From a candidate division WOR-3 bacterium (lineage in GTDB: Bacteria > Hydrothermota > Hydrothermia > Hydrothermales > JAJRUZ01), in NCBI GenBank assembly GCA_039803925.1, contig JBDRZL010000005.1, positions 9,969 through 73,968 on the forward strand: a DNA stretch of 64,000 nucleotides, read 5' to 3'. The position numbers and the translations under genes were made by a program. Numbering within the stretch: position 1 is the first letter of the stretch; each line of letters begins with the position of its first letter. Below are positions 7,512 through 47,215 of this stretch, piece after piece. The notes under the pieces were generated by a model. That model made no database searches and was not told where the DNA came from. It saw nothing but the letters and a program-made list of their open reading frames with translations.

Positions 7512-7580
7512 ATTTTATGGTAGTGCGCAAAAATTCACTTATTGAGCCAAAAAAAATCAATATTTTTATGGTATTCTACA
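7512..7580 (+). promoter_or_regulatory. Conserved promoter-like element, copy A: TTGAGC(7542-7547)-N19-TATGGT(7567-7572)-ATTCTACA. Probable promoter of the Tad locus.
   Basis: Near-identical ~50-nt sequence also occurs at 46541-46590 and 47171-47215. It has a sigma70-like -35/-10 layout and sits about 75 nt upstream of the first Tad-locus gene. An upstream companion motif TTTTATGGTAGTGCGCAAAAATTCAC is shared with 46383-46423. Confidence 0.45.
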
Positions 7581-7656
7581 TAACCTTGACTTTTGTAAAA
7601 TTTTTTTTTAAAATTGTAGCTTGAAAATTTTTAATTTAAAATAATAAAATATTAAA

Positions 7657-8043
7657 ATGAAAACGATGAAAACGATCAGATGGGCTTTAATTTTGATTTT
7701 CAGTGGGGGATGCTTCTATTATTCCCCAGAGTCGGATCCTTATAAAATAGAAGTTCCTATTGAAGAAACTATGACTAAACCTGAGCTTCAAAAGGTTTCA
7801 CTTATGTTGGAGGTAATGGATGCAAAAACCATGCAAAATATTCCGGATGTTAAACTGGTTATACTTGGTACCCCTTTACCACCTTATACTCTTGAAAAGG
7901 GAAAGAAAGAATTAATAATTCCTCCTGGAAGATACAGATTTAAATTTTCTGCTAAAAATTATAAAGAGGTAATTAAAGAAATTAATGTTTTTCAAAATAC
8001 ATCACTTACCTTTTATCTTGAAAAAGAAGAGGTGGAAAAATGA
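7657..8043 (+). CDS. Small lipoprotein, first gene of the Tad locus (possible secretin pilotin or accessory)
   Basis: Signal peptide plus lipobox (LIFSGGC). 128 aa. Its stop overlaps the secretin start (ATGA). Confidence 0.5.
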   Translation: MKTMKTIRWALILIFSGGCFYYSPESDPYKIEVPIEETMTKPELQKVSLMLEVMDAKTMQNIPDVKLVILGTPLPPYTLEKGKKELIIPPGRYRFKFSAKNYKEVIKEINVFQNTSLTFYLEKEEVEK

Positions 8044-9338
8044 TTTTAAAACTGTTTATTGTTTCATATCTCGTATTATTTGAGGGATATTCAAAACTTT
8101 TTAAGTTTGTGAGACCCGTTAAAAGTGTTGCTATCGGCAATCCTGATATTTTGGGAATGAGACTCCTTTCTGACCGTGAGGTTTTACTGAATGCTCTGAA
8201 GGAAGGTGTAACAAATATGATTATTTTTACAGATAGAGGAACTCAGGAAATAGAATGTGTAATTAAAAAAAGAGATCCCCTCCAATTTTATAAACCTAAA
8301 ACTTTGAGGACTGATGTTTGGGTTCTTGAAGTGGAAAGAAATGTTAATTCAGATTATGGATGGGACTGGCTAAAGCAACTCGGATTTTCAGAATATAAAA
8401 TTCCAGAAACTTTTCCTCTTGATATTGGACCCATAAAGAGAACAACTAATTTATCAAGTACACTTAATTTTCTTGAGGAAAAGGGTATATTGAAAATTTT
8501 ATCAAATCCATCCCTTGTGGTTCTTGAAGACAAAACCTCAGAATTTCTGAGTGGAGGAGAGATACCTGTGGTTATAGCACAGGCACTTGGAACTGCTACT
8601 ATTGAATGGAAAGAATACGGTGTAAAACTTAAAATTTCAGGTAAACTTGATGATGAAGGTTATATAATATTAAATTTGGAACCAGAAATTTCTGATCTTG
8701 ATTATGCAAATGCTGTTACTTTTCAAGGTTATGTTATACCTGCTATAAGAAAGAATAATGCAAAAGTTGAAGTTAAACTCTTACCAGGTGAGAGTATTCT
8801 GATAGGGGGGTTAAAAAGGAAAAATGTTCAGGAATTTAGAAGTTATTTGCCAATCCTCGGTAAAATTCCTTTACTCGGGAAGCTACTATTTTCAAGGGTT
8901 ACTCGTAATGATGTTATAAAGGATGTGGTTTTTATTGTCACGCCTTATGTATTACCCTATGAAAGAGGAGCAGCACAGATTCATATTTTTAAAGGGACAA
9001 AAACAAAGGAATTTTATATTCCTACAAAAATTATTGATGGTAATACCTATTTTGAACTTTCAGATTTATTTAAAAAAGAACTTGATATATGGTATAAATG
9101 GATAGAGGAAGGAAAGTTAGCTGAAATAAATTTTGGTAAAAGAAAATCTTTTCTTTCAGTTGAAAAGTCAACTCTTGAAATAGATGGGGTTGCTTTTCCG
9201 CTTCAGCCTGAGGTGAAAATTCTTGATAAGGTTTTATTTGTTCCCTTTTCCTTTTTTGAAACAATTGGTTTATCAGGTTTCTGGGACGCTTACACAAATG
9301 ATTTCTATGTTCTTGAAACCTTGAAAGAAAAAGAGTAG
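8040..9338 (+). CDS. cpaC: Tad/Flp pilus secretin (CpaC/RcpA family) with C-terminal copper-amine-oxidase-N-like stalk domain
   Basis: N-terminal pilus-formation domain (VKSVAIGNPDILGMRLLSD...GTQEIECVI). Secretin core ending in LPILGKIPLLGKLLFSR...VVFIVTPYVL. The extra ~120-aa C-terminal domain (STLEIDGVAFPLQPEVKILDKVLFVPFSFFETIGLSGFWDAYTNDFYVLE) resembles Cu_amine_oxidN1. Confidence 0.75.
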   Translation: MILKLFIVSYLVLFEGYSKLFKFVRPVKSVAIGNPDILGMRLLSDREVLLNALKEGVTNMIIFTDRGTQEIECVIKKRDPLQFYKPKTLRTDVWVLEVERNVNSDYGWDWLKQLGFSEYKIPETFPLDIGPIKRTTNLSSTLNFLEEKGILKILSNPSLVVLEDKTSEFLSGGEIPVVIAQALGTATIEWKEYGVKLKISGKLDDEGYIILNLEPEISDLDYANAVTFQGYVIPAIRKNNAKVEVKLLPGESILIGGLKRKNVQEFRSYLPILGKIPLLGKLLFSRVTRNDVIKDVVFIVTPYVLPYERGAAQIHIFKGTKTKEFYIPTKIIDGNTYFELSDLFKKELDIWYKWIEEGKLAEINFGKRKSFLSVEKSTLEIDGVAFPLQPEVKILDKVLFVPFSFFETIGLSGFWDAYTNDFYVLETLKEKE

Positions 9339-9340
9339 TT

Positions 9341-11515
9341 ATGAAGAAATATGCTTTGATAGGTGCAAAGGGAGGTGTAGGTGTATCTGTTTTATCATCA
9401 CTTTTATCCTATGAAATCTCTCTGAAAAAAAAGAGTGTACTTTTAATTGAGGCAGAAAATCACGGGGATCTCCCCTACATTTTCGGATCAGATTCAAAGA
9501 AGAGTTTTAAAGAAGCCCTTGATAGTTTCAAAAAGGAGAAAAAGTTTAAAGGTGAATTTATATATGGCTATTCTTCTTATCCTTCAAAACTCCATATGAT
9601 ATTTTCTAAAACTGGTGAAATATGGGATAAAGAATATGATTTTATAGGTCCCTTATTAAAGAGAATTGAACCTGATTATGATTATGTGCTCTTTGATTGC
9701 GGGCACACCATTGATGAAAAAATTTTGAATATTCTTGATATTGTGGATCTTATTTTTGTTGTGATGAAGAATGATTTTCTATCACTTGCAAAGTCAAAGA
9801 ATTTAAGGGAAATTTTCAGATTAAGGTATTATCCTCCCCAGAAGATAGAATATGTAATAAACTTCTTTAATGAAGATGGAATTTCCTTGGAAGAAATAGA
9901 AAAGATTTTGGAAAAAGAGATTCTCTTTCTTTTGCCAGAAGATGAATCAATTTTGAGTGTAACAGAGTTTGGTTTTGATACGGGAAAAGAAAAAATTTCT
10001 CAGGTTTTTAAAGAGAAAATTAAAGAGATATCAGCTTTTATTTTAGGTGAATTAAGAAGAGAAGATTTTATGGAAAAAAGAAAGGAGGTAAAAAGAGACT
10101 TTTTAAGTGGTATTTTTAGAAGAAGGAAAAAAGAGGATAGGGATGAAAAAAAAGTAGCAGAAGTAGTGACTGAATCAAAACCAGGTGAAAGTGTTTTGGT
10201 GGAAGAAGTTGTAGAAGAGGTTCCCTATGAAGTAAAAAAGTTAATCCATGGACATATTGTTAAAGAAATGACATTATCTGGTGAACTTACAGCAACAGTA
10301 GAAAGTGCTACATATAGAGAAGAAATTAGAAAAAAGGTGGAAAAGTTAATAGTAGAAAAATTAGATGAATTTAATATTCCTTTACCATCTCAGGAAGTTA
10401 GAAAAAAATTTGTGGAGGATATGATAAAAGAAATACTCGGACTTGGCCCACTTGAAGATCTTCTCGCTGATCCTGAGGTTACTGAAATTATGGTTAATGC
10501 TCCTAATAAGATTTACATAGAAAAAGGAGGAAAAATTTATCTGACTGATAGAAGCTTTTTCAATGAAACTCAACTGAGGATGGTGATAGAAAGAATTGTT
10601 GCACCAATTGGAAGAAGAGTTGATGAGGCTTCTCCTCTATGTGATGCAAGATTACCAGATGGTTCAAGAGTAAATATAACACTTCCCCCTGTTTCTATTG
10701 ACAGTCCTACGATAACTATAAGAAAATTCAGGAAAGAACCTTTCACCTATCAGGATCTTGTTAATTTTGGTTCAATAGCAGATTTTATGGTTGATTTTTT
10801 AAAGGCTTGTGTCTATGTAAAGAAAAATATAGTTGTGGCAGGTGGAACTGGTTCAGGTAAAACAACCCTTTTAAATGTTTTATCTTCATTCATTCCTGAG
10901 GATGAAAGGATAGTTACAATTGAGGATACTGCTGAGCTAAGATTGCAGCAACCTCATATAGTAAGACTTGAAGCAAGACCACCCAACATAGAGGGAAGAG
11001 GAGAAATTACAATAAGAGATCTTGTTAGAAATGCTTTAAGAATGAGACCCGATAGGATAATAGTTGGTGAGTGTAGAGGGGGAGAAGCTCTTGATATGCT
11101 CCAGGCTATGAACACAGGTCATGAAGGCTCTCTTACAACGGTGCACGCTAACTCCCCTCGGGATACATTATACAGGCTTGAGACAATGGTTTTAATGGCT
11201 GGAACTGAGCTTCCTGTTTCAGCAATAAGAAATTACATAGCCTCAGCTATTGATTTTATAGTTTTTGTGGAAAGAATGAGAGATGGAAAAAGGAGGGTTA
11301 CAAAAATATCAGAGATTACAGGAATTGAGGGAGATATAATAACAATGCAGGATATATTTATTTTTAAACAGAAGGGAGTCTCCGAAAAAGGTGAGATAAT
11401 AGGTGAATTTATGGGGACTGGAATAAGACCAAAAGTTCACGAAGAGTTTGAAATTAAGGGTGTTAAAATTGATCAGAGTATATACTATAAAGGGAGGAAA
11501 GAGGAATCATGGTGA
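9341..11515 (+). CDS. cpaF: Fusion protein: CpaE-like ParA/MinD-fold domain with degenerate P-loop, joined to a CpaF/TadA secretion ATPase
   Basis: The N-terminal ~245 aa follows the CpaE pattern (GAKGGVGVS...YDYVLFDCGH...DLIFVVM) but has GVS where the canonical Walker A has GKT. A charged linker follows. The C-terminal ~420 aa is VirB11/CpaF-like (GGTGSGKTTLLN Walker A; IVGECRGGEALDMLQAMNTGHEGSLTTVHANSP). Confidence 0.8.
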   Translation: MKKYALIGAKGGVGVSVLSSLLSYEISLKKKSVLLIEAENHGDLPYIFGSDSKKSFKEALDSFKKEKKFKGEFIYGYSSYPSKLHMIFSKTGEIWDKEYDFIGPLLKRIEPDYDYVLFDCGHTIDEKILNILDIVDLIFVVMKNDFLSLAKSKNLREIFRLRYYPPQKIEYVINFFNEDGISLEEIEKILEKEILFLLPEDESILSVTEFGFDTGKEKISQVFKEKIKEISAFILGELRREDFMEKRKEVKRDFLSGIFRRRKKEDRDEKKVAEVVTESKPGESVLVEEVVEEVPYEVKKLIHGHIVKEMTLSGELTATVESATYREEIRKKVEKLIVEKLDEFNIPLPSQEVRKKFVEDMIKEILGLGPLEDLLADPEVTEIMVNAPNKIYIEKGGKIYLTDRSFFNETQLRMVIERIVAPIGRRVDEASPLCDARLPDGSRVNITLPPVSIDSPTITIRKFRKEPFTYQDLVNFGSIADFMVDFLKACVYVKKNIVVAGGTGSGKTTLLNVLSSFIPEDERIVTIEDTAELRLQQPHIVRLEARPPNIEGRGEITIRDLVRNALRMRPDRIIVGECRGGEALDMLQAMNTGHEGSLTTVHANSPRDTLYRLETMVLMAGTELPVSAIRNYIASAIDFIVFVERMRDGKRRVTKISEITGIEGDIITMQDIFIFKQKGVSEKGEIIGEFMGTGIRPKVHEEFEIKGVKIDQSIYYKGRKEESW

Positions 11516-12345
11516 CTTTAATTTTGATTATCCTTACAATTATAGGTGCTATTTATATTTTAATAATTTTTCTTGAAGAATTTTTTATCTATTATATAAG
11601 GAATATTCAGCAAAAACTGGATCCTGCTGATTTTCCTGTTAAAAATTTTATTTTACTCGAACTCAGACTTTTATTTGGTCTTTCCATTATTACATATCTC
11701 TTTCTAGGTAAAACTTTAGCAACTAAAATTTTTGTCATTCTTTTATTTACAGTTCTTATAATAATTTTCTTTCCTCAGTATGCTTATACGATAAGAAATA
11801 AATGGATAGAGAAATTTAATGACCAACTGGAGGAAGGGATGAGATTAATTGTGAGTGGATTGAGGGCTGGTCTTGGTTTTAATCACTGTTTGAGGATAGT
11901 GGTTCAGCAGATGCCTCCCCCAATGAAAACAGAATTTAAAAGGGTTCTTGATGAGGTCTCTCTTGGAGTACCTCTTGAAGAAGCTCTTCATCATCTGGAA
12001 GAAAGGATTCCTTCCAGAGAACTTAAAATATTTACAAGTGCGGTAATTTTGCAGAGGAAAACAGGTGGTTCTCTTGTGGATGTTCTTTCAGGTATAGCAG
12101 ATACAATAAAGGCAAGAAGAAGATTGAAGAGAAGGATAGATACACTTACTGCTGAAGGAAGGTTATCAGCTATAGTCCTTACTCTTTTACCCCTTTTTTT
12201 GTTAATTTTATTAAGAATAACACAACCAGACCTTTTTGCCCCTATGCTTGAAGAACCGATAGGTATTCTAATGCTTTTTATTGCAGCCTTCCTTGATTTA
12301 ATGGCAGCCCTTTGGATAAGAAAAATAATTACTATAGAAATATGA
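11509..12345 (+). CDS. tadB: Tad pilus inner-membrane platform protein TadB (T2SSF domain)
   Basis: T2SSF domain: GLRAGLGFNHCLRIV...ALHHLEERIPSRELKIFTSAVILQRKTGGSLVDVL. Flanking TM segments. Confidence 0.8.
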   Translation: MVTLILIILTIIGAIYILIIFLEEFFIYYIRNIQQKLDPADFPVKNFILLELRLLFGLSIITYLFLGKTLATKIFVILLFTVLIIIFFPQYAYTIRNKWIEKFNDQLEEGMRLIVSGLRAGLGFNHCLRIVVQQMPPPMKTEFKRVLDEVSLGVPLEEALHHLEERIPSRELKIFTSAVILQRKTGGSLVDVLSGIADTIKARRRLKRRIDTLTAEGRLSAIVLTLLPLFLLILLRITQPDLFAPMLEEPIGILMLFIAAFLDLMAALWIRKIITIEI

Positions 12346-13244
12346 TACTTTTAATTTTTATATTATCTTTTATTGCTTTTTATTACCTTGTTCTCGCTTT
12401 TATTCCTTCACCTGAAGAAGTGGCTTTATCTTCACGTCTCGAGAGATTAAGGAGAAGGAGGGTTAGAATTGAAATTGCCTCAAAAATTATTGCCTACCTG
12501 GCTCCCTTTGCTGAGATAATCGTTAAGATTTTAAAAAAATATTTACCAGAAGATTATTTAAATTCTCTTGAAAAGAAAATGGAAATGGCTGGAGAAAGAG
12601 GTAAATCAGTAGAAGCAGTTCTTATGGAAAAAGTAATAAGTGGTTTTGTATTTTACATTGTTTCAATTATAATAATGATACTTATTTTTAATGCACCTTT
12701 TTCTTTTAGTCTTATTATGGGATTTGTAGTTCTTTTTGCGGGATTTTTTTATAAGGATTTTAGTTTAAATCAGGAGATAAAAAGGAGACATTATTTAATA
12801 CAAAAAGATTTGGGTGATGCATTGGACCAATTAAACACCGCAGTACAAGCAGGCCTGGGATTCAATGCAGCTTTCCAGTATGTGACAGAGGCTATGCACC
12901 CATGTCCACTGAGAGAAGAATTTGCCTTAATGCTCTCTGAGCTTAGATTGGGTAAAAAAAGGACTGATGCTTTGAGAGCCCTTGCTGATAGAACTCAACA
13001 TCCGGATCTTACACTTGTTGCAATTACAATAGCCCATGGAGAAGAGCTTGGTGCCCCAATAACCCAGACATTAGCTTCTCTTGCTGATGAAGTTAGAAGG
13101 AAGAGATGGGATCAAGCAGAAGAAAGAGCTGCAAAAACCCCTGTTCTTATAGTAATACCCACTATACTTTTAATTTTACCTACCATATTTATTATAATTT
13201 TTGGCCCTTTTGTTTTATATTATCTATTCGGAGGAGGTATGTAA
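12312..13244 (+). CDS. tadC: Tad pilus inner-membrane platform protein TadC (T2SSF domain)
   Basis: DALDQLNTAVQAGLGFNAAFQYV...LRLGKKRTDALRALADRTQHPDLTLVAITIAHGEELGAPITQTL with TM helices. Confidence 0.8.
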   Translation: MDKKNNYYRNMILLIFILSFIAFYYLVLAFIPSPEEVALSSRLERLRRRRVRIEIASKIIAYLAPFAEIIVKILKKYLPEDYLNSLEKKMEMAGERGKSVEAVLMEKVISGFVFYIVSIIIMILIFNAPFSFSLIMGFVVLFAGFFYKDFSLNQEIKRRHYLIQKDLGDALDQLNTAVQAGLGFNAAFQYVTEAMHPCPLREEFALMLSELRLGKKRTDALRALADRTQHPDLTLVAITIAHGEELGAPITQTLASLADEVRRKRWDQAEERAAKTPVLIVIPTILLILPTIFIIIFGPFVLYYLFGGGM

Positions 13245-13245
13245 A

Positions 13246-14019
13246 ATGAAAGGTTTTTTATTTTTTATAATACTCACAAATCAGAGCCCTGAGGAAAGGG
13301 CTGATCTTTACATAAAGCTTGCGGATTATAAAAATGCTGTAATGGAGTATTCTGATTTGATTTTTAAAAAACCTGAAGATAAAAAATTAAGAGAAAAACT
13401 CTTATTCAGTGCAAATAAATATATTGAAAAAAATTTCCTGAAAATGGATAAAGAAATTTTGGAAAAGGCTTTATCAAAGTATAGAAATGGAGAGCTTGAT
13501 TCAGCTTTATATTTATCAAAAATTTTATACGATAAATTTTATTTTGAGCCAGAAGTAGTTACTTTTTATCAAAGATGCTTATGGACAGTTGATACTCTAA
13601 GAAAACTTTATTCCCTTTTAATAGATACTGAAAGGAAAAAAGATTATCAAGCAGCCCACAGGTATGCACTGGAGATTAAAAATATTTATCCCAGTTATCC
13701 TGAAATTGATGAAAAAATAAATTATTACTTTAGTAAAATACCGAAGGTTGAGGAAAAAAGACCCCTCGTAGTTGAAAGAAGGGAGGTAGTGAAAAAACCT
13801 GTTGAAAAACCTGTTGAAGCTGAAAAGGCTATTAAGGTGGAAGAAGATGTTCAGGCAAAAGTTCAGGAACTTTATAAAAGAGGTGTTACACTTTACAGTG
13901 AGGGAAAATTAGAAGAAGCAAGGGAAATTTTTAGAGAGATACTCAAAATTGATCCTCAAAATACAAAAGTAAGGAGAAATCTTGCAGTAATAGAAGAAAG
14001 ATTAAGGGGGAGAAGATAA
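13246..14019 (+). CDS. TPR-like repeat protein (TadD-like accessory?)
   Basis: Helical repeat sequence, C-terminal TPR-like segment LYSEGKLEEAREIFREILKIDPQNTKVRRNLAV. Sits in the Tad operon. Start set to ATG 13246. Confidence 0.45.
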   Translation: MKGFLFFIILTNQSPEERADLYIKLADYKNAVMEYSDLIFKKPEDKKLREKLLFSANKYIEKNFLKMDKEILEKALSKYRNGELDSALYLSKILYDKFYFEPEVVTFYQRCLWTVDTLRKLYSLLIDTERKKDYQAAHRYALEIKNIYPSYPEIDEKINYYFSKIPKVEEKRPLVVERREVVKKPVEKPVEAEKAIKVEEDVQAKVQELYKRGVTLYSEGKLEEAREIFREILKIDPQNTKVRRNLAVIEERLRGRR

Positions 14020-15302
14020 TGGAAAGAAAAAACTTTATTATTACAGGGCTTTTTATATCTGTAATTTCTTTAGTAGTTTTATTATATTTCTTTGGAAGGT
14101 GGGTTTTAAATGAAACAAATAGATGGCTAACAAGTGATGCGGAAAATTTTTCCAATGCAGTTTTTAGTAGTCTTGTGGAAAGTATAAAAATTCCCTGGGA
14201 AACAGGAGATGAGATAAGTTTAAGTTACATTGTGTCTCGTATGAAAAGGGAAAATAGAGATATTGAAGAAATTTCAATAATTGATAGAGAAAATACTATA
14301 ATTGCCCATACAAATACCGACTATATTTTGAGCAAATTTAAATTTCCTGATGAAGCTCCCTTTGATTTAAAAGGGGTTGGTTTTTCAATAAGGAATGATA
14401 AAGTATATATATTTAAGCCCACTTTAAGCACCCTTGGTGATACTTTAGGGTATATATACTTTACATTAAAACCAAGATCTTTAAGAGAGGGAAGAGATTC
14501 TTTAAGGAGGATTCTTTTTCTTTTTGTTGTAGCACTATCTGCACTTTTCCTCTTTTTATCTGCAATACTTGTTTTTATTTCCACTCCAGTTGAGAGAAGG
14601 AAAATAATTTATGAACCCAAATATTCTGATTTCCTTTCTTATCATATTCCTGAATCTGGTGGATATAAACCAGAGGGATGGTCCCTTTATCCTTTTTATG
14701 AAAAAGGAGAAATACCAAATATTTTTTATAAAGTTTTTAGAATTTCTCCTGAAAGATGGGGAATCTTTAGTTTCCAGATAATAAGTGGTGGTTATACTTG
14801 GTCAATTTTATTTCCCTTTATAAATTCTTTTCTCGATAAATACCTTTTCACAGAGGAGGACCCTTTTGTTGTTTTGAAAAATTTACAGGATGAATTTTCA
14901 AAGCTTATGATAAATGAAGGAATTGTTGAGGGTTCTCTTTTATTTTTTGATGAAGAAAAAGGAAAGATAAGAGGAGCAAGTTTTGGTGACCATATTCTTT
15001 ATAGAAAAAGAGAAAGTGAATTAATTCCAATCTATGAACCTGCTAAATTTTATGATTTTTCAAACAGAGTATCAGAAGTAAAGTATTTTGAAACTGAAAG
15101 AGAAGACTTTTTAATTTTAGTTACTGGTAATTTTTACAGATGGTTTAGATTTAATGAACTTATTGAAAAAATTAAAGATATAAGGGATGAAGAGGATATT
15201 AAAAAAGTTATTGAAAATTTTAAATTTTTGTATGAAGAAAGTAAAATTAAAGAAGGCATTTTGCTTTTATTCTTAAAGAAAATAAAGGAGGTAGAGGGAT
15301 GA
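14019..15302 (+). CDS. Membrane-anchored sensor-like protein with degenerate PP2C/SpoIIE-type phosphatase domain
   Basis: Two TM segments flank a ~135-aa extracytoplasmic domain. The C-terminal part follows a PP2C/SpoIIE-like pattern (GIFSFQIISGGY...GASFGDHILYRK...EDFLILVTGNFYR). Start overlaps the upstream stop. Confidence 0.35.
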   Translation: MERKNFIITGLFISVISLVVLLYFFGRWVLNETNRWLTSDAENFSNAVFSSLVESIKIPWETGDEISLSYIVSRMKRENRDIEEISIIDRENTIIAHTNTDYILSKFKFPDEAPFDLKGVGFSIRNDKVYIFKPTLSTLGDTLGYIYFTLKPRSLREGRDSLRRILFLFVVALSALFLFLSAILVFISTPVERRKIIYEPKYSDFLSYHIPESGGYKPEGWSLYPFYEKGEIPNIFYKVFRISPERWGIFSFQIISGGYTWSILFPFINSFLDKYLFTEEDPFVVLKNLQDEFSKLMINEGIVEGSLLFFDEEKGKIRGASFGDHILYRKRESELIPIYEPAKFYDFSNRVSEVKYFETEREDFLILVTGNFYRWFRFNELIEKIKDIRDEEDIKKVIENFKFLYEESKIKEGILLLFLKKIKEVEG

Positions 15303-24664: not shown

Positions 24665-24702
24665 ATGGGTTCAAATCCCAAAAAAACATAGGAGGTTTTA
24701 AG

Positions 24703-24873
24703 ATGAAGTTTTTAAGGTGTGAGAGAGGAGCGACAGCAGTGGAGTATGCGATGATAATAGGGCTTATAGCCCTATTTGCATTTGCTGCCTATAAGGCTCT
24801 TGGAAAGCAGGTTCAGAGGGTGATCCACGAAATGTGGAATAAGATGACAGAAGCCTCTGCTGGGCCTGAGTAA
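24703..24873 (+). CDS. flp: Flp/Fap family pilin (56 aa), copy 1 of duplicated pair
   Basis: RBS GGAGG. MKFLRCERGATAVEYAMIIGLIALFAFAAYKALGKQ... The upstream region and the gene together (24661-24873) are about 98% identical to 25101-25313. Confidence 0.75.
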   Translation: MKFLRCERGATAVEYAMIIGLIALFAFAAYKALGKQVQRVIHEMWNKMTEASAGPE

Positions 24874-24916
24874 TTTTATAAAATTTATGGGGTTCAAATC
24901 CCCCCTGCCCTTTAAG

Positions 24917-25093
24917 ATGATTATGCTAAAAAATATTCTGATAGATGAAAGGGCGGGGACGAGTGTGGAATATGGATTTCTTCTCGGAATTTCTGGTCTC
25001 TCTGCTTTTTATGCTTATGTTGCTAAAAAAGTAGAAGATTTAATAAATGAATTTACAACAAAGTTTTTTTATATATATGCTGGACCTCCATAA
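24917..25093 (+). CDS. flp: Flp/Fap family pilin (58 aa), divergent
   Basis: MIMLKNILIDERAGTSVEYGFLLGISGLSAF. No clear Shine-Dalgarno. Preceded by the GGTTCAAATCC motif. Confidence 0.55.
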   Translation: MIMLKNILIDERAGTSVEYGFLLGISGLSAFYAYVAKKVEDLINEFTTKFFYIYAGPP

Positions 25094-25142
25094 TAGATAT
25101 ATTTTAGGGTTCAAATCCCAAAAAAACATAGGAGGTTTTAAG

Positions 25143-25313
25143 ATGAAGTTTTTAAGGTGTGAGAGAGGAGCGACAGCAGTGGAGTATGCGATGATAATAG
25201 GGCTTATAGCCCTATTTGCATTTGCTGCCTATAAGGCTCTTGGAAAGCAGGTTCAGAGGGTGATCCACGAAATGTGGAATAAGATGACAGAAGCCTCTGC
25301 TGGACCTGAATGA
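25143..25313 (+). CDS. flp: Flp/Fap family pilin (56 aa), copy 2 of duplicated pair
   Basis: Identical to the 24703 gene except for the last codons. The ORF-track N-terminal extension from 25047 is an artifact. Confidence 0.75.
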   Translation: MKFLRCERGATAVEYAMIIGLIALFAFAAYKALGKQVQRVIHEMWNKMTEASAGPE

Positions 25314-25477
25314 TGAAGTTGTTAATAAGGGAAGAAAAAGGTGCATCTGCAGTTGAATATGCGATGCTTATAGGACTTATTTCTCTTTATGCTTTTGCAG
25401 CTTATAGAGCACTTTCAAGGGTGACTTATGCGGTAATAGAGCATATGTGGAATGAATTAACAAAAGCAGGGGGGTAA
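25310..25477 (+). CDS. flp: Flp/Fap family pilin (55 aa)
   Basis: MMKLLIREEKGASAVEYAMLIGLISLYAFAAYRAL. ATGA overlap with the previous pilin. Confidence 0.65.
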   Translation: MMKLLIREEKGASAVEYAMLIGLISLYAFAAYRALSRVTYAVIEHMWNELTKAGG

Positions 25478-25482
25478 TAACT

Positions 25483-25656
25483 ATGAAGAAATTTTTTAAA
25501 AATGAGAAAGGTGCTACTGCTGTTGAATATGCAATGATTATAGGGTTGATAGCATTATTTGCTTTTGCTGCTTATAAGGCACTTGGAAAAGAGGTTCACA
25601 GGATAATTGTATGGATGAAGTTTAAATTTATGACTATCCATGCTGGTCCTGAATGA
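25483..25656 (+). CDS. flp: Flp/Fap family pilin (57 aa)
   Basis: MKKFFKNEKGATAVEYAMIIGLIALFAFAAYKALGKE. Confidence 0.7.
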   Translation: MKKFFKNEKGATAVEYAMIIGLIALFAFAAYKALGKEVHRIIVWMKFKFMTIHAGPE

Positions 25657-26198
25657 TTTATGATATTATTAAGTTCCAAATTGTTGGACTTGTTGTGATA
25701 ATTTCAGTATATACTGATTTAAAATACGGTAAGATTTTTAATAAATTGACATTCCCTTTCTTTTTTACAGGATTTCTTTATAACTTTATGTTTAAAGGAT
25801 TTTCTGGTTTAGTTTCTTCCTTTATAGGTTTTTTGGTATCTTTTATTCCCTTTTTTATATTCTTTCAGCTGGGTGGGGTTGGTGGTGGTGATGTGAAACT
25901 TCTTGCAGGTATAGGTTCCTGGGTTGGTTATCCTCAGGTTCTTTGGATTATTTTTATGACTTCTATTTCAGGTCTTTTTATATCTATCTTGGTGAGTCTT
26001 TTTAAGGGTAAAATTGAATTTGTTTTAAAGGGTGCTTTTAGGGAAGGAAAAGAAAGTGTTAGAAATTTTATCTTTTCTCTATTTACTAAAAATCCAGAAT
26101 TTTTAGATAAAAATAGAGAATTTAAACTTTATGTTCCCTATTCTTTAGCCATAGCATCTGGGACTTTTTTAGGTTTAATAATTAATTTTTCACTATGA
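25653..26198 (+). CDS. tadV: Prepilin peptidase CpaA/TadV (A24 family)
   Basis: Multi-TM protein with the conserved second catalytic Asp in GGGDVKLLAGIG. ATGA overlap with the last flp gene. Confidence 0.75.
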   Translation: MIYDIIKFQIVGLVVIISVYTDLKYGKIFNKLTFPFFFTGFLYNFMFKGFSGLVSSFIGFLVSFIPFFIFFQLGGVGGGDVKLLAGIGSWVGYPQVLWIIFMTSISGLFISILVSLFKGKIEFVLKGAFREGKESVRNFIFSLFTKNPEFLDKNREFKLYVPYSLAIASGTFLGLIINFSL

Positions 26199-37683: not shown

Positions 37684-37689
37684 GTTTTT

Positions 37690-39069: not shown

Positions 39070-39131
39070 AGATTATAGAGAATTATCAATTATTTTTTTC
39101 ATAAAATTTATTTTAAAAAGGAGGAAAAAAA

Positions 39132-40477: not shown

Positions 40478-40878
40478 TGAGGAGTTTAAAAAAATTTTTA
40501 AGAAAATTATTTTTAAGAATATTTAAGCTAAATCCAGAAAAAAAATTTATTTCTTTGCCTTTAAGTCTTAAAAACTTTGATAAAGTAATAGTTATACATG
40601 ATGGTGAAGAAAAAGAAATTGAAAAAATTTTAGAGGAAATGAATTTTAAAAACTATTTTGTAATAAAATTAGATAAAAAAAATGAGGATTTGTTTCTTGA
40701 AAAGATAACAAAAAAAACTTTAGTAATAGATTTATGTAAAGTTTCACAGAATATTTTTCTAAAATATCTTTCCAAAGATTTTCCTGTTTTAGGTATAAGA
40801 AGGGATTTAACCATTTCCCTTCCCGGTAGAGATTATCATAATTTTTTTGAGAATTTTTTGAAAATTCAGGGTCTTTAA
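40474..40878 (+). CDS. Hypothetical protein
   Basis: 134-aa ORF, ATGA-coupled to the upstream gene. No recognisable motifs. Confidence 0.3.
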   Translation: MMRSLKKFLRKLFLRIFKLNPEKKFISLPLSLKNFDKVIVIHDGEEKEIEKILEEMNFKNYFVIKLDKKNEDLFLEKITKKTLVIDLCKVSQNIFLKYLSKDFPVLGIRRDLTISLPGRDYHNFFENFLKIQGL

Positions 40879-40919
40879 TTTTTTTAATTTTTAAGTTATA
40901 ATAAATATTTGATTTTGAA

Positions 40920-41375
40920 ATGAAAAAAATAATAGAGAAAGATATTTTGGTTAATAAAAAGGCAAAATCTGATTATGAAATTTTTGATACCTATATATGT
41001 GGAATTGTTTTAAAGGGAGCTGAGGTGAAGTCTTTAAGAGATGGAAGGGCTTCTATAAAGGATGCTTATGTAAAAATTGAAAATGGGGAAGCCTATATAT
41101 ATAAATTTCATATTTCACCCTATCCACCTGCTTTTAAATTTTTCCCTGATCCTGAGAGAAAAAAGAAACTTTTACTTACAAAAAGAGAGATTAAAAGGTT
41201 GATTGGTAAATGGAAGGAAAAAGGACTTGTTTTAATCCCTTTAAGGGTTTTTTTTAAAGGAAAATGGGCTAAAATAGAAATAGCGCTTGCGAGAAAGAAG
41301 AGAAAATATGAGAAAAAGGAATTGATTAAAAAGAGGGAAATGGAAAGAGAATTGAAAAGGGAGATGTTAAGGTGA
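40920..41375 (+). CDS. smpB: SsrA-binding protein SmpB
   Basis: YICGIVLKGAEVKSLRDGRASIKDAYV...KLLLTKREIKRLIGKWKEKGLVLIPLRVFFK. Confidence 0.85.
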   Translation: MKKIIEKDILVNKKAKSDYEIFDTYICGIVLKGAEVKSLRDGRASIKDAYVKIENGEAYIYKFHISPYPPAFKFFPDPERKKKLLLTKREIKRLIGKWKEKGLVLIPLRVFFKGKWAKIEIALARKKRKYEKKELIKKREMERELKREMLR

Positions 41376-42469
41376 TTCTTTTAATATTTATAAATATACT
41401 TTTAAACCCACCCGAAATAGTTCAAAAAAAGGATACAGTTTATATTACCTTTGATGTAAAAGGTCCTCTTAAATACGAAAAATCTTTAAAGGAACAAAAA
41501 TTAGAAATTAAAATAAGGGATATAGATTCTGTTTTTCCCTTTTCTTCAAAATTGAGTAATCCAATTTTAAAGGGTATTGAAATAAAAAAAATTGAAGGTG
41601 ATGCTTTGATTCTTCTTGAATTAAGTTTCCTTTGTAAAAATTATAGAATAGAGAACAAAAGAGATTATTTTAGATTAACTTTAAGGGGGAATGTTCCTGA
41701 TAGTTTATTTAAGGCTGAGGAAAAAAGAGAAAAAACTAAGCCAATTACTGAAAATAAAAAAATGAGAGCTATAAAAAGAATTGTAATAGACCCTGGTCAT
41801 GGAGGAAGAGATTATGGAGCAGTAAGTAAAAAAGGAACAAAGGAAAAGGATATTAATTTAAAGGTAGCAAAATTTTTAAGAGAGGAACTTAAAAAAGAGG
41901 GTTTTGAGGTTTTTCTGACAAGGGAAGAAGACACCTTTATAACTCTTTCTGATAGAACAAAATTCGCCAATAAAATAGGTGCTGATCTTTTTATTTCTCT
42001 TCACTGTAATGCTTCACCGAGAGTTACTGAAACCTCAAATGGAGTTGAAGTTTATTTTCTTTCTGAAGCAAAGACTGACTGGGAAAGAGCTGTTGCTGCT
42101 CTTGAAAATGCTTCTTTGAAATACGAGTATCCTAATGAAAAGGTTCCGGATGGTATTATTGAGGCTATTCTTATGGATATGGCTCAAACTGAATATTTGT
42201 ATGAATCCCAGAAACTTGCAGAGGTATTGCAGAAATCAATTTCCAAGGAATTGAATATACAAGATAGGGGTGTCAAGCAGGCAGGTTTTTATGTATTGAA
42301 TGGATGTTATTCACCTGCTGTTCTTGTTGAGATGGGTTTTATAACAACACCTTCTGATGAAAAACTTTTAAAAGATGAGAAATATCAGAAAAATCTTACA
42401 AAGGCAATAGTCCAGGGTGTAAAAAAATTTAAAGAGTGGTTTGAAAAAACTTCCAATTTTACTCAATAA
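41372..42469 (+). CDS. N-acetylmuramoyl-L-alanine amidase (Amidase_3) with N-terminal AMIN-like domain
   Basis: IVIDPGHGGRDYGAV...DLFISLHCNAS...GVEVYFLS. The N-terminal beta-rich domain looks AMIN-like. Confidence 0.75.
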   Translation: MILLIFINILLNPPEIVQKKDTVYITFDVKGPLKYEKSLKEQKLEIKIRDIDSVFPFSSKLSNPILKGIEIKKIEGDALILLELSFLCKNYRIENKRDYFRLTLRGNVPDSLFKAEEKREKTKPITENKKMRAIKRIVIDPGHGGRDYGAVSKKGTKEKDINLKVAKFLREELKKEGFEVFLTREEDTFITLSDRTKFANKIGADLFISLHCNASPRVTETSNGVEVYFLSEAKTDWERAVAALENASLKYEYPNEKVPDGIIEAILMDMAQTEYLYESQKLAEVLQKSISKELNIQDRGVKQAGFYVLNGCYSPAVLVEMGFITTPSDEKLLKDEKYQKNLTKAIVQGVKKFKEWFEKTSNFTQ

Positions 42470-42475
42470 TTTTAA

Positions 42476-43666
42476 ATGGAAACAGAAAAAACTTTAATTT
42501 TCAAGTTAAAAAAAGAGGAAATTTCTCCTCTTATTGAAAGGATCTCAAAAGAGTATCAGAAAAATGTAAAAATTCAGGGTTTCAGGCCTGGAAAGGCTCC
42601 TATTGAAATTGTAAAGGCAAAATATAAAAAGGAAATAGAGGAAGATAGTTTAGAGGAATATATAAGGGAAAAAGTTTTAGAGGAAGTAAAAAAAGAGAAT
42701 TCAAAACTTGCTTCACCTATTTATATAAAGGATAAAAAGATTTCTGGTGATGAATTTGAAATTACTGTTTCTTTTGAAATTCTTCCTTCTTTTGATGTTA
42801 GAGGATTTGAAAATATCAAAGTTGAAAAAAGGATTAGAAGAGCTTCACCTGATGAAATAGAAAAAAGGTTAAAGAAGTACCAGGAGTCTCTTGCTGAGTT
42901 AAGGGATAAAGAGGAAGGAGTAAAGGAAGGTGATTTTATTGTATTAAAATATAATGTTAATGATATTTCAGGCAGAGAGGTTTTAAAGGACAAAACGGAA
43001 TCTTTTAGGTTTATAAGGGGAAATATTCCAGAGGAATTTTATAGAGAGATTGAAGGTAAAAAGAGAGGAGAACATTTTAAGGTAGCAAGAAACGAAAAAA
43101 ACGGAACCTTTATATACGAGGGGAATATTCTTTCTGTTAAAGAAGTAATACTACCGCCTATTGACGATGAATTTGCAAGGATGTTTGAAATGGAAAGTCT
43201 TGAGGATTTTAAGAAGAAAATCGGGGAGGAAATTGCTGAAGATTTAAAAAGAGAAGCTGAAGAAGAGTTTGAAAATAAAATACTTGAAGAACTTTCAAGG
43301 ATAAATAAAGTTCCTGTTCCAAGATATTATGTAGAGGAGGAATTAAGAGGAATTATTTCAAGGTATGGATTGAAGGAAGAAGAAGTGAATGAGAGATTTG
43401 AGGAATTTTATAAAGTTGCTGAGGAAAAGATTAGAAGAAGATTACTTCTTGAAAGGCTTGCAGAGCAGCTTAAAATTGAGGTAAAAAAAGAAGAGATAGA
43501 GGAAGAGATAAAGAGACTTGCAAGAGATTACAGAATGGATTTCGAAGTTCTTAAAAAAAGACTTGAAGAAAGAAACGTTCTTATAGAGATTGAATATTCA
43601 ATTAAAAGAAAAAGAGCTATGGAGTTTTTAAAAAATAATGTTAAAATGGAGGTGATAATAGAATGA
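42476..43666 (+). CDS. tig: Trigger factor
   Basis: N-terminal ribosome-binding domain ([25 protein letters not shown]), a PPIase-like middle region and a C-terminal helical domain. Followed by clpP-clpX. Confidence 0.8.
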
Positions 43667-44262
43667 AAAACCAAACAATACCATTTGTTATAGAGCAAAC
43701 AGGAAGATATGAAAGGGCATACGATATTTATTCCCGTCTTTTAAAGGATAGGATTGTTTTTCTTGGTATGCCTATAGATGACCAGGTGGCAAATCTTGTA
43801 ATTGCTCAGCTTCTTTATCTTGAAGCAGAAAATCCAAAGAAAGATATATATCTTTACATAAATTCTCCGGGTGGTTATATAACATCTGGTCTTGCCATTT
43901 ATGATACAATTCAGTATATAAGGCCTGATGTTAATACAATATGCATAGGAATGGCGGCAAGTATGGCAGCAGTTTTACTTGCAGCAGGAACAAAAGGTAA
44001 AAGGTATGCATTACCCCACTCAAGAATTATGATTCATCAGCCTTTTGGTGGAGTTCAGGGACAGGCAATTGATATTAAAATTCATGCAGAGGAAATAATG
44101 AGGATGAGGGATATGTTAAATGAAATTCTTGCAAAACATACAGGCCAGCCAAAGGAAAAAATAGAAAAGGATACTGATAGAAATTATTTTATGTCACCAC
44201 AGGAAGCACTTAATTATGGTCTTGTAGATGAGATTATAACTTCAAGAAAAGAACTAAAATGA
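43663..44262 (+). CDS. clpP: ATP-dependent Clp protease proteolytic subunit
   Basis: [63 protein letters not shown]. Confidence 0.9.
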
Positions 44263-45476
44263 GGGAGAAGAGGTTAATTCCAGGGAAAGAAATTAGGTGT
44301 TCTTTCTGTGGAAGAGCAGAGGCACAGGCAAGAAGGCTCTTTTCAGGGGCAGGTGCTTTTATTTGTGATGACTGTGTTAAATTCTGTTATGAATTAATGT
44401 TTGAGGAGGAAAAGGATAGAAAACTAAAGACAGATTTTTATTTTTCAATACCGAGTCCACAAGAAATAAAAAGAGAACTTGATAAATATGTTGTAGGGCA
44501 TGAAAGGGCAAAGAAGATTTTATCTGTTTCTGTTTATCAGCACTATAAGAGGATAGTTTTGAATGATAAAAATATTGAAAAGAGTAATGTTCTTTTAATA
44601 GGACCAACAGGAACAGGTAAAACTCTTCTTGCAAAAACACTTGCAAAAATTCTTTCTGTTCCTTTTGCTCATGTTGATGCAACTCCTTTAACAGAGGCTG
44701 GTTATGTTGGGGAGGATGTAGAAAATATTCTTTTGAGATTATTGCAGGCAGCAGATTTTGAAATAAGAAAAGCAGAAAGGGGTATTATTTATATTGATGA
44801 GATAGATAAAATTGCAAGAAAAGGAGATTCACCTTCAATAACAAGGGATGTTGGAGGTGAAGGTGTTCAGCAGGCTCTTTTGAGAATTCTTGAAGGGACA
44901 ATTGCAAATGTTCCACCTCAGGGAGGTAGAAAACACCCTGAGCAGGCTTTTATTCCAATGGATACTACGGGTATTCTATTTATATGTGGAGGAACATTTG
45001 TTGGACTTGAGAAAATAATTGAAAATAGAAAGTTAAAAAGTTCGCTTGGTTTTATTAAGAAGGATGAACACAGTGAAAGGTATTTTGATATTCTTCCTGA
45101 TGATATAATTGAATACGGTTTTATTCCTGAATTTGTTGGAAGGTTACCTCTTATTGTAACTCTTGACGAGCTCACAGAGGATGAGCTTTATAGGATTCTT
45201 GATGAACCTGAGAATGCTATTTTAAAGCAGTATGAAAAGATTTTTGAGAGTGAAGGTATAAAACTAATTTTTAAGGAAGGTTTAAAGAGAGAAATAGCAA
45301 GGAGAGCAAAAAAACTTGGTATGGGTGCAAGGGGTTTAAGGATTTTTATTGAGAATCTTTTATTTGATGCTATATATAGATTGCCTTCTTTTAGGGGAAA
45401 ATATAAGTATTGTATAGTGGATGAAAGTTCTTTTGATACAAAAAAAGTTAAATTTACAAATAAAATAAATTTTTAA
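44259..45476 (+). CDS. clpX: ATP-dependent Clp protease ATP-binding subunit ClpX
   Basis: Zinc finger CSFCGR...CDDC. Walker [25 protein letters not shown]. Confidence 0.9.
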
Positions 45477-45499
45477 TTTCAGATTAAGTTCTTTAAATT

Positions 45500-46084
45500 A
45501 TGGAAATAAAGCCAGTTTATCTTATGCAGCCAATACCATATTTTGGAGAAGAGCTTGATTATCAAAATTTTATATGTGAGCCTAAAATAGATGGGTGGAG
45601 AATGCAAGTTTTAAGGTATTTAAACGGAAAAATTGAGTTCTGGGGGAGAAGACTTGAAAAAATTCCAAACTGGACTTATAGACTTAATTATCTTATTGAA
45701 ATTGCTGAAAAGTTTTTACCTCCTGGCACAATACTTGATAGTGAACTTTATGATGAAAGGGGGAGAAGGTTTATTCCTTCATTATTTACAAAAAAGGGTG
45801 GAAAGCCGATCATTTATGTGTTTGATATTTTATTTTATAAGGGTGAAAAAGTTTATGAGAGGAAATTGATGGAAAGGAAGAAAATTCTTGAAAGTATAAA
45901 TTTTTTACCTCCCTTTAAATTGATTGAATATAAAAAAATAATTAGTAAAGATGATATTTTTAATTTTTTAAAAGAGGCAAAGGAAAAAGGTAATGAAGGT
46001 ATAATATTAAAACACATAAAGTCAAAATATATAATTTTAGAAGAAGGTCCTTCTTCAACAGAATTCTGGATAAAAATTAAATAA
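45500..46084 (+). CDS. Stand-alone ATP-dependent DNA/RNA ligase nucleotidyltransferase (adenylation) domain, no OB domain
   Basis: Motif I KIDGWR. Motif III ILDSELY. Motif IIIa YVFDILFY. Motifs IV/V NEGIILKHIKSK. Only 194 aa. Confidence 0.5.
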   Translation: MEIKPVYLMQPIPYFGEELDYQNFICEPKIDGWRMQVLRYLNGKIEFWGRRLEKIPNWTYRLNYLIEIAEKFLPPGTILDSELYDERGRRFIPSLFTKKGGKPIIYVFDILFYKGEKVYERKLMERKKILESINFLPPFKLIEYKKIISKDDIFNFLKEAKEKGNEGIILKHIKSKYIILEEGPSSTEFWIKIK

Positions 46085-46382
46085 TAGCAATTTGAAAAAT
46101 TTTAAGAGATAAATTAACATGTTATAATCTGAAAGAAATAGAAAAAATATATGATAAGATAGAGGCTAAAAAGATTAAGATTATATAGTTTTATGAAAAA
46201 TATGATATGGAGAAAGGTTAAAGTAGAGGAGGAATTAAATATAGGTTACCATTTTTTTGAAAATTTTCAGCTGGGAAGTCACACTTTTTAAGGTATAAAG
46301 TAAAAGCATTTTTAGAATATTATTTCTATTATGCCTAATATATCCTTCACCCTTAATTTTCAAAAAACAAAGGCTTTATAAT

Positions 46383-46423
46383 TTTATGGTAGCCGCACCC
46401 TTCAGGGTGCGAAAAAATTCGCA
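46383..46423 (+). promoter_or_regulatory. Conserved intergenic motif with GC-rich hairpin (CGCACCC-TTCA-GGGTGCG)
   Basis: ATTTTATGGTAGCCGCACCCTTCAGGGTGCGAAAAAATTCGC. The same framework without the hairpin insert occurs at 7513-7539. The 7-bp perfect stem lies in a region otherwise about 20% GC. Confidence 0.35.
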
Positions 46424-46540
46424 ATCAAATTTTCTGAAAAATAGACAACAAAGCAACAGAAATGCTTTTGGATTTAAAAAAATTGCGGTATATTTATGGA
46501 AGAAAAATTAAAAACATTTTGTCGTAGGCCCCCTTGTAAT

Positions 46541-46590
46541 CTTATTGAGCAAGAAAAATTCAATATTGTATAGTATTCTGCAGATATTTG
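46541..46590 (+). promoter_or_regulatory. Conserved promoter-like element, copy B: TTGAGC(46545-46550)-N18-TATAGT(46569-46574)-ATTCTGCA
   Basis: Aligns with 7538-7580 and 47169-47215. About 45 nt upstream of the 46624 start. Confidence 0.45.
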
Positions 46591-46623
46591 AATTTTTCGT
46601 TTATTTTTTTTATAATTTAAAAT

Positions 46624-47052
46624 ATGAAAATAATAACTATTCCAAAGGTATTAAGGGAAAAACTTGGGGATGATGGAGTTGATGCATTAATTGAGCTTTT
46701 AAATGCTTCTAATGAAAAACTGAAAATTGATTTAATTGAGTTACAGACTGAAAAATATGAAAGGAGACTTGCTGAAGAAACAGCAAAGATTGATAAAAGG
46801 ATAACTGAAGAAACAGCAAAGATTGATAAAAGGATAACTGAAGAAACTGCAAGACTTGATAAAAGAATTACTGAAGAAACTGCAAGACTTGATAAAAGAA
46901 TTACTGAGGAGATTTCAAAATTAAGAGCTGAATTTAATGAAAAAATTTCAAAAACTTATGCGAACATAATAAAATGGATGTTTATATTCTGGGTAGGACA
47001 GATAAGTGTTATGACTTTAATATTTTTTTCCTTTTTAAAATTTATTAGATAA
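46624..47052 (+). CDS. Coiled-coil protein with four tandem 11-aa repeats (ITEETAKIDKR) and a C-terminal TM helix; resembles DUF1640-type proteins
   Basis: 33-nt DNA tandem repeats span 46795-46925. C-terminal hydrophobic tail WMFIFWVGQISVMTLIFFSF. Confidence 0.55.
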   Translation: MKIITIPKVLREKLGDDGVDALIELLNASNEKLKIDLIELQTEKYERRLAEETAKIDKRITEETAKIDKRITEETARLDKRITEETARLDKRITEEISKLRAEFNEKISKTYANIIKWMFIFWVGQISVMTLIFFSFLKFIR

Positions 47053-47168
47053 TGATAAAAAGGAAAATTGAGGCGAAATGCGAAGGATTTTATGAGAAAA
47101 TGCTTATGTTGAGAGATTTAAAGAGGACTATATAATAACATTTTGTATGTAGTAGGCACTCCTAAAAA

Positions 47169-47215
47169 TTTATTGAACCAGAAAAATTTAATATTGTTAT
47201 GGTATTCTACAACAA
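47169..47215 (+). promoter_or_regulatory. Conserved promoter-like element, copy C: TTGAAC(47173-47178)-N19-TATGGT(47198-47203)-ATTCTACA. No downstream plus-strand ORF.
   Basis: Third copy of the element. It points toward the 3' end of the convergent minus-strand gene 47347-49920. Confidence 0.35.

Follow-up and report, generated by a model that had tools for sequence, protein, structure and literature searches.

A modular intergenic repeat with promoter-like sequence, linked to DUF1640 genes, in a WOR-3 bacterium

The DNA analysed here is a 64,000-nucleotide (nt) stretch, referred to as the window, from a metagenome-assembled genome (MAG) of a WOR-3 bacterium (JBDRZL010000005.1, assembly GCA_039803925.1); its GC content is ~31%, and positions are window coordinates unless a comparison locus is named. 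Three plus-strand copies of a promoter-like intergenic element lie in the window, A at 7509-7582, B at 46512-46584, and C at 47137-47212 (Table 1). The genes after copy A form a complete Tad/Flp locus, with a secretin, a TadZ-TadA-like ATPase, two T2SSF proteins, TadE/TadG-like components, and a prepilin peptidase. Copy B precedes a gene with 11-residue repeats, and copy C points into the 3′ end of a convergent gene. All three contexts are as a first-pass annotation of this DNA had described them. The protein encoded after copy B matches the NF047472 model LA_3696_Nterm with 58 bits against a cut-off of 32, and its homologues are named LA_3696 or DUF1640.

The likeness between the three copies is far beyond chance, and their near-identity, claimed in the first-pass annotation, is borne out by shuffling, profile searches, and pairwise alignment. 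A 42-nt degenerate pattern, TTATTGARC..TATRGTATTCTRCA, is matched with zero mismatches at 7539-7580 (A) and 47170-47211 (C) and has zero matches in 100 dinucleotide-preserving shuffles, while copy B (46541-46584) departs from it by a 1-nt deletion. A search of the 64-kb window by nhmmer, with a model made from the three window copies, recovers these three as the only full copies, each on the plus strand and at E ~1e-25, and adds a partial companion-motif match at 46377-46401; a model that includes copies from other loci recovers the window copies at E 1e-15 to 3e-18. Pairwise BLAST, which is free of circularity, gives 88% identity over 42 nt for A and C, and 81% over 62 nt for B and C. The likeness reaches ~30 nt upstream of the -35 box and in C ~60 nt more, and CATTTTGT.GTAGGC.C...AAAATC stands before TTATTGAGC in both B and C.

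Comparison loci were obtained by exact-protein look-ups. Three further MAGs of the same species, assembled independently, reproduce the arrangement of B and C with 99.4-100% identity, and it is therefore not an assembly artefact. A sister lineage (loci L021, L023, and L025) stands at ~94-95% nucleotide identity and an outgroup (L039) at ~87.5%. Loci L028 and L032 both come from GCA_039804065.1, L035 and L036 from two sister-lineage MAGs, and L037 and L042 from more distant WOR-3 MAGs. The conservation counts given below refer to eight distinct core copies from the window and other loci. When public collections were scanned with the pattern TTATTGANCN{17,20}TATNGTATTCTNCA, two matches were obtained in genome_contigs (species-representative genomes) and 15 in metagenome_contigs, all at chance level; these 17 are singletons in unrelated genomes, mostly of higher GC, and none fits the full-element model. 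A looser pattern gave at least 120 matches in viral contigs, again with none fitting the full-element model. Because these scans gave chance matches only, the element does not appear to be widespread.

Table 1. Repeat modules, promoters, and associated genes in the window and at comparison loci.
Feature	Position	Strand	Description
Predicted promoters (two) of the S17-L14-L24... ribosomal-protein operon	7394-7458	-	TTGATT-17-TATAAT and TTGAAT-17-TATAAT
Inserted block with copy A	7471-7584	+	114 nt: 16 nt of other DNA, companion X without hairpin, core-right
Companion X of copy A	7508-7536	+	TATAATTTTATGGTAG + TGCGC + AAAAATTC; GC hairpin gone
Copy A core-right	7538-7580	+	-35-like TTGAGC 7542-7547, 19-nt spacer, -10-like TATGGT 7567-7572, then ATTCTACA
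Predicted native Tad-operon promoter	7586-7614	+	TTGACT-N17-TAAAAT; also in lineages without copy A
Companion X of B region	46377-46421	+	TATAATTTTATGGTAG, GC hairpin CGCACCCT/AGGGTGCG 46394-46411, then AAAAAATTCG
Spacer module, X to B core	46422-46511	+	Absent from sister B; common to the repeat downstream of paralog 4 (L036)
Copy B core	46512-46584	+	Core-left CATTTTGTCGTAGGCC..., -35-like TTGAGC 46545-46550, 18-nt spacer, -10-like TATAGT 46569-46574
Gene-proximal predicted promoter P2	46588-46623	+	TTGAAT-N17-TATAAT, hexamers 46588-46616, then 7 nt and ATG
LA_3696/DUF1640-family gene	46624-47052	+	142 amino acids; 33-nt (11-residue) repeats; C-terminal membrane helix
Copy C upstream extension	47077-47136	+	Homologous to sequence preceding the paralog 2 core (L028)
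Copy C core	47137-47212	+	-35-like TTGAAC 47173-47178, 19-nt spacer, -10-like TATGGT 47198-47203; no gene after
Non-coding tail after copy C	47213-47346	+	134 nt to the stop codon of the convergent NHL-repeat gene; long imperfect inverted repeat
Core at L028 (paralog 2)	L028 9887-9961		DUF1640 gene next
Core at L032 (paralog 3, directly after 16S rRNA gene)	L032 9886-9960		DUF1640 gene next
Core at L032, downstream of paralog 3	L032 10503-10577		Unrelated 166-residue protein gene next, no family match
P2-ATG arrangement across WOR-3 species	window 46588-46626; L028 9965-10003; L037 3529-3567; L042 2811-2848, 3219-3256, 3694-3731

The copies belong to a repeat family, most members of which are linked to paralogs of the gene after copy B. 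These MAGs contain at least three additional paralog loci, encoding proteins that are 75-80% identical. In MAGs of the same species, the ~72-nt core stands upstream of two further LA_3696/DUF1640 paralogs, and its nucleotide identity between the paralog upstream regions is 82-85%. A degenerate core copy also lies downstream of the L028 paralog, and the layout of core, gene, and core seen for B and C recurs at L032 and, in degenerate form, at L028. As for copy C, the stretch 47077-47211 is 84% identical over 137 nt to the upstream region at L028, which is the closest to copy C. This match to the whole of an upstream region fits the orphaned upstream region of a lost unit, and copy C is probably what remains of a neighbouring tandem unit; tblastn found no DUF1640 pseudogene or protein remnant after it. 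A tandem arrangement of this kind is present in another WOR-3 species, where L042 2846-4145 holds three tandem DUF1640 genes with 66-nt spacers and a degenerate unit after the last gene, each spacer consisting of a small GC hairpin and a promoter.

The DUF1640 genes themselves vary in the number of their 33-nt (11-residue) repeats (46747-46919 in the window), also between strains at the same locus. The encoded proteins have 113 versus 154 amino acids at L032 and L038 (gene at 10001), and lengths of 128, 131, 142, and 153 amino acids are found as well (proteins compared: P0008, P0022, P0026, P0028, P0032, and P0044). The length of the DUF1640 coiled coil is hypervariable.

Directly upstream of every DUF1640 gene is a canonical promoter sequence, TTGAAT-N17-TATAAT (P2); the ATG follows the -10 box at a distance of 7 nt, and a Shine-Dalgarno sequence is lacking. 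A strong GGAGG Shine-Dalgarno sequence is present at many other genes in the window, and several promoter-proximal genes that lack one have TATAAT a short distance upstream. P2 is probably the real DUF1640 promoter, and because of the short distance from the -10 box to the ATG and the missing Shine-Dalgarno sequence, the DUF1640 mRNA is probably leaderless, in an arrangement that is apparently conserved (Table 1). P2 is kept where the core is absent, namely at paralog 4 (L036), at L031, and in the distant MAGs L037 and L042. Since P2 is kept in paralogs and species that lack the core, the core is, judged by its distribution, an accessory upstream module that is present or absent upstream of P2. 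In copy A and in the copies upstream of DUF1640 genes, the core stands upstream of a better canonical promoter (P2 at DUF1640, TTGACT-17-TAAAAT at Tad). The distance from the -10 box of the promoter-like unit in the core (P1) to the next -35 box is 13 nt at A, at B, at L028, at the upstream copy of L032 (L032u), and at the sister version of copy B (L025B).

The repeat is modular. Companion X, which the first-pass annotation had noticed as a motif common to A and B, is present in both, and the X copy of A is 96.6% identical over 29 nt to one in L025. X lies upstream of both copies; in A it adjoins the core, and in B it is ~120 nt away from the core and not beside it. The GC hairpin in the B region (fold z -3.4) had been taken for an insertion into the motif. 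A regex census finds the hairpin in five of six distinct companion copies, making it the usual state of X, and it is therefore most likely that A lost the hairpin rather than that B gained one. In sister B, a stretch of ~108 nt (about 46422-46529) that separates the X hairpin from the core in the window is missing, and X abuts the core. In sister C, window positions 47105-47190 are missing, i.e., core-left and the -35 box segment, and the ends of this deletion are the microhomology TATGTTG / TATTGTT. The L036 core copy is split by 81 nt between AATAT and TGTTATGG, the same break point as in sister (L025) C. Evidently, modules have been shuffled by illegitimate recombination, and single copies do not seem to be strongly protected. 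The element proves to belong to a larger dispersed repeat, one that close lineages may have or lack, and the first-pass annotation had named such an outcome in advance as refuting its reading.

Two further observations concern companion X in the sister lineage. An extra X copy with two hairpins is found at L025 8053-8122 (near window 46247-46262), in a ~110-nt insertion flanked by an 18-nt direct repeat, TACCATTTTTTTGAAAAT. The insertion holds TATAAT-N6, a Y-shaped structure (7-bp closing stem ATGGTAG/CTACCAT, two GC hairpins), and then T7; its RNA fold has a z of -4.0, and it may encode a small RNA or serve as a terminator. Furthermore, L035 and L036 (10640-10720) have paralog 4 and X in common, and their gene neighbourhoods differ from ~90 nt after X, reflecting a rearrangement that took place at the repeat, or else a break in the assembly.

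Copy A shows the repeat at a site outside the DUF1640 family. The region between S17 and the Tad locus is otherwise collinear in the sister and the outgroup, with flanks, including the native promoters, that are ~98% identical in the sister. The 114-nt block with copy A is missing from the sister loci L021 and L023, which have 1 nt in its place, and from the outgroup L039, where the flanks are contiguous; before the insertion, the S17 and Tad promoters stood back-to-back. Because two lineages lack the block, it is by this comparison a recent, derived insertion in the window lineage. It is closest to the sister version of copy B. At its ends is an imperfect direct repeat, TTCTATAATAAC (7461-7472) and TTCTACATAAC (7574-7584), of which the right member overlaps the conserved ATTCTACA of the element itself, and there is no clean target-site duplication. 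Terminal inverted repeats were found neither at the ends of the A block nor at those of copies B and C. Copy A thus looks like the product of microhomology-mediated copying, not of transposition. The insertion keeps the 13-nt register between the P1 -10 box and the next -35 box that is seen at four DUF1640 loci.

On balance, we lean towards reading the copies as members of a modular intergenic repeat, confined to this lineage, of the reused promoter-region type (“putative mobile promoter”). Its home would be the far-upstream 5′ regions of DUF1640 genes. Its modules would be companion X (TATAAT-N6-GTAG and a GC hairpin), an optional spacer of ~90-108 nt, core-left (CATTTTGTAGTAGGC.CCCCTAAAAATC), and core-right, where core-right can be read as the sigma-70-like unit P1 (TTGAGC, 18-19 nt, often TGn, TATGGT) that at the home loci would end 13 nt upstream of the P2 -35 box. 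The repeat could have spread by two routes: it may have travelled with gene duplications, and its modules may have been shuffled, deleted, and transplanted by recombination of an illegitimate or microhomology-mediated kind. Copy B would then be at home, copy C an orphan on the 3′ side of the gene and a probable relic of a tandem unit, and copy A a fragment of 114 nt (X without hairpin and core-right) pasted between the S17 and Tad promoters in this lineage only. The putative effect would be a dispensable second start site upstream, with P1 and P2 feeding the downstream gene in tandem.

That P1 is active as a promoter is plausible from the pattern of conservation. In the -10 box TATGGT, the six positions are conserved in 8, 8, 8, 7, 4, and 8 of the eight copies; TAT..T is kept, and the column with the lowest conservation anywhere in the core is a -10 position that is minor for sigma-70. 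The corresponding counts for the -35 box are 8, 8, 6, 8, 5, and 8. A TGn extended -10 motif is present in 5/8 copies, a -2/+1 indel pair at L028 nearly restores the spacing, and all copies except C point toward the next gene. The earlier description as promoter-like therefore stands with regard to the hexamers, which vary like a sigma-70 -10 box, and is weakened by the better canonical promoters downstream and by the spacing. Several observations weigh against P1 as a promoter. Its hexamers are 18-19 nt apart (19 in A and C, 18 in B), compared with 16-18 nt in sigma-70-type promoters, whose hexamers are close to TTGACA and TATAAT, and with 17 nt in the clear promoters of this genome, and a consensus scan calls only B (TTGAGC-18-TATAGT, 9/12 positions), not A or C. 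The B/C region has 8 promoter-like sites versus 9.2 expected in shuffles, and the two copies at paralog 3, upstream (L032u) and downstream (L032d) of it, no longer have the G of the -35 box. Moreover, conservation in the spacer equals or exceeds that in the hexamers, and it exceeds that in the -35 hexamer; a plain promoter does not predict this, although recent common ancestry may be all that it reflects. Promoter-like sites are enriched in the 400 nt of the A region (8 versus 2.9 in shuffles), but these sites are the native promoters, and copy A is not among them.

Other identities for the core were considered and rejected. Short open reading frames (ORFs) overlap it, but indels of 1-2 nt between copies break any common frame. 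For the alternative sigma factors sigma-54, sigma-28, sigma-32, and the extracytoplasmic function (ECF) group, the required GG/GC or GAAC/CGTC positions are, by eye, absent or unconserved. On the minus strand, a divergent promoter could draw on an inverted TTGAAT box, but at 16-18 nt from it a usable -10 box is missing. As for P1 having arisen from P2 by duplication and divergence, the two have only TATTGA and TAT..T in common, which is indistinguishable from convergence. The core has no stable or shared fold (z -1.3 to +1.2), no match in Rfam 15 at gathering thresholds (three sub-threshold matches, E 0.13-0.83), and no match to a tRNA or transfer-messenger RNA, which speaks against a structured RNA or attC-like DNA. 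One of the three sub-threshold matches, to rteR, with 25.9 bits against a gathering score of 72, overlaps the sister B copy.

The repeat could instead be functionless relic DNA, made up of upstream regions left over from lost tandem DUF1640 units and of recombination debris, with a promoter look that is inherited from, or converges on, the real promoter of the family. We regard this as possible though somewhat unlikely. Gene loss in a tandem array such as that at L042, with its hairpin-plus-P2 spacers, would leave orphans like copy C, and the decay of single copies (the -35 half lost in sister C, the split copy in L036), the chance frequency of promoter-like matches, and the absence of the A block from two related lineages that keep the same native promoters are all consistent with relic DNA. 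On the other hand, the upstream core is as conserved between paralogs as the proteins they encode, the substitutions avoid T1, A2, T3, and T6 of the -10 box, and no likeness between P1 and P2 can be demonstrated beyond the hexamers.

A second alternative, which we consider unlikely, is that the core is mainly a regulator-binding site acting on P2, and that the DUF1640 paralogs, the Tad operon, and an outer-membrane-like gene form a regulon. The best-conserved stretch of the core is the spacer, AGAAAAATTCAATATTG, and not the hexamers, and within it lies TATTGA-N11-TCAATA, an inverted repeat. The spacer (46553-46563) is furthermore linked with the P2 -35 region (46588-46598) by GAAAAATTCAA / TTGAATTTTTC, perfect inverted copies of each other over 11 nt, and at L028 the matched change to A...T from G...C at the two ends keeps the complementarity. 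The 13-nt register, fixed at five loci including the new insertion A, points in the same direction. However, copies C, L032d, and L036d (the copy downstream of paralog 4) are out of register with any -35 box, a 6-bp inverted repeat is expected by chance in AT-rich DNA, and the half-sites are kept no better than their neighbours; recent copying can also explain the high identity of the spacer. Other paralogs and species do without the core at their DUF1640 genes, and no candidate regulator gene lies near in the neighbourhoods examined. The inverted repeats keep a regulator site alive as a weak suggestion, given that such statistics are weak in AT-rich DNA. A bolder version appears doubtful. In it, the core and companion X would form a mobile regulatory cassette that is non-autonomous and is copied by microhomology or template switching, with no transposase involved, to sites directly before -35 boxes; at Tad it would have landed in the same 13-nt register as at its home loci, and the Tad operon would recently have been wired into DUF1640 control.

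As for copy C, the first-pass annotation had suggested a promoter for a small or antisense RNA. Such an RNA would cover 47210-47346 and run into the 3′ end of the NHL-repeat gene. Copy C does have the best extended -10 box (TGTTATGGT), followed by 134 nt without an ORF, and this tail is 89% identical to that of the sister lineage and folds somewhat better than shuffled sequences (RNA fold z -2.3, 3/200 shuffles as good). Little else speaks for such an RNA, and we find it improbable. Sister C lacks the -35 half, and a stronger promoter-like site, TTGAGA-16-TATAAT at 47109-47136, lies just upstream of copy C. Two stem differences in the sister weaken the fold of the tail and do not compensate for each other, which rules out compensatory support for it. 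No terminator is called on the plus strand at the tail, and Rfam gives nothing on the tail itself, with one sub-threshold match nearby (E 0.83). Finally, a recombination site of a small gene-cassette system, with the DUF1640 gene excised or integrated by crossover inside the core, is highly improbable, since the layout of core, gene, and core at three loci (B/C, L032, and the degenerate L028), the two independent breaks at the same point in L025 C and L036, and the break in gene order right after X between L035 and L036 are set against flanking copies of the same locus that are only ~80% identical and no closer than copies elsewhere, a core without an attC-like single-strand fold, a sister break that is explicable by microhomology deletion, a copy A that is not a cassette, and no integrase or recombinase in any fetched neighbourhood.

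Some features of the surrounding genes are of separate interest. In the Tad locus, 9341-11515 encodes a single 724-residue protein with a TadZ/CpaE-like ParA/MinD domain (AAA_31) and a TadA/CpaF secretion ATPase (T2SSE), which appears to be a fusion of two usually separate Tad components. The tandem short genes at 24667-25657 have a Flp-pilin-like motif (..AVEYA..) and include two 208-nt repeats that are 99% identical, which suggests recently duplicated pilin genes. The ribosomal-protein cluster (4717-7458) begins at S17, next to the Tad locus, and has its own pair of canonical promoters; the usual upstream S10-operon genes (L29, L16, S3...) are not adjacent to it, and it is therefore split. 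At L032 8213-9767, the 16S rRNA gene is directly followed by the repeat and the DUF1640 gene instead of tRNA or 23S genes, and rRNA genes appear to be unlinked in this organism. The 194-residue ORF at 45500-46084, just upstream of the repeat-rich intergenic region, has the adenylation domain of an ATP-dependent DNA ligase only and scores well below the cut-offs of full-length ligase families.

The value of these observations is modest. They describe a promoter-region module copied before an unrelated operon, that for Tad pili, with the direction of the change set by an outgroup, in a phylum without cultured members or promoter data. They also reveal a likely promoter architecture for DUF1640 genes, TTGAAT-17-TATAAT placed 7 nt before the ATG of a probably leaderless mRNA, and they illustrate that, in AT-rich DNA, a repeated “promoter” can be striking and still be a repeat of paralog flanks rather than a dedicated regulatory signal.

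Among known systems, promoter-bearing miniature inverted-repeat transposable elements (MITEs), e.g., the Correia elements of Neisseria, are ~100-nt intergenic insertions with outward promoter-like boxes. The A block resembles them as a ~100-nt insertion that is present or absent between close lineages, with promoter-like boxes beside genes, but unlike them the repeat has no terminal inverted repeats, no clean target-site duplication, and a mosaic modular structure. The empty site in the sister and outgroup, with only the imperfect repeat at the junctions, is more like microhomology. Repetitive extragenic palindromic (REP) and REPIN elements, which are mobilised by RAYT transposases, combine GTAG with a GC-rich hairpin. 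Companion X has this layout (GTAG at 46389-46392 and the hairpin at 46394-46411, in an AT-rich genome), whereas the core does not, and in the copies examined the X hairpins are single and in direct orientation, not in inverted pairs; a RAYT gene was not seen either, no search aimed at one having been made. Tandem P1/P2 promoters occur at rRNA operons, and as in these, two co-directional promoter-like units ~43 nt apart stand upstream of one gene; P1 of the repeat, however, is off-consensus, dispensable, and copied elsewhere as a block. Unlike integron attC sites, the core has no single-strand fold, and no integrase is encoded in the fetched neighbourhoods. The closest parallel is with putative mobile promoters (Matus-Garcia, Nijveen & van Passel 2012; PMC3575422), a term for stretches of 50 nt or more that share at least 80% identity and stand before genes of a single genome that are not paralogs of one another. 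In the same MAG, the L028 upstream copy and the L032 downstream copy, which precedes the gene for the 166-residue protein, are 81% identical over 90 nt, within this definition, and copy A is marginal, with 88-89% over 42-46 nt and 79.7% over 79 nt. Unlike putative mobile promoters, most copies are linked to one paralogous family, which the survey would have filtered out, and the element stands upstream of a separate canonical promoter instead of replacing one. As for putative mobile promoters, DNA that is not tied to a known mobile element is found as similar non-coding sequence ~50-150 nt upstream of non-paralogous genes, i.e., the DUF1640 genes, the Tad operon, and the gene for the 166-residue protein.

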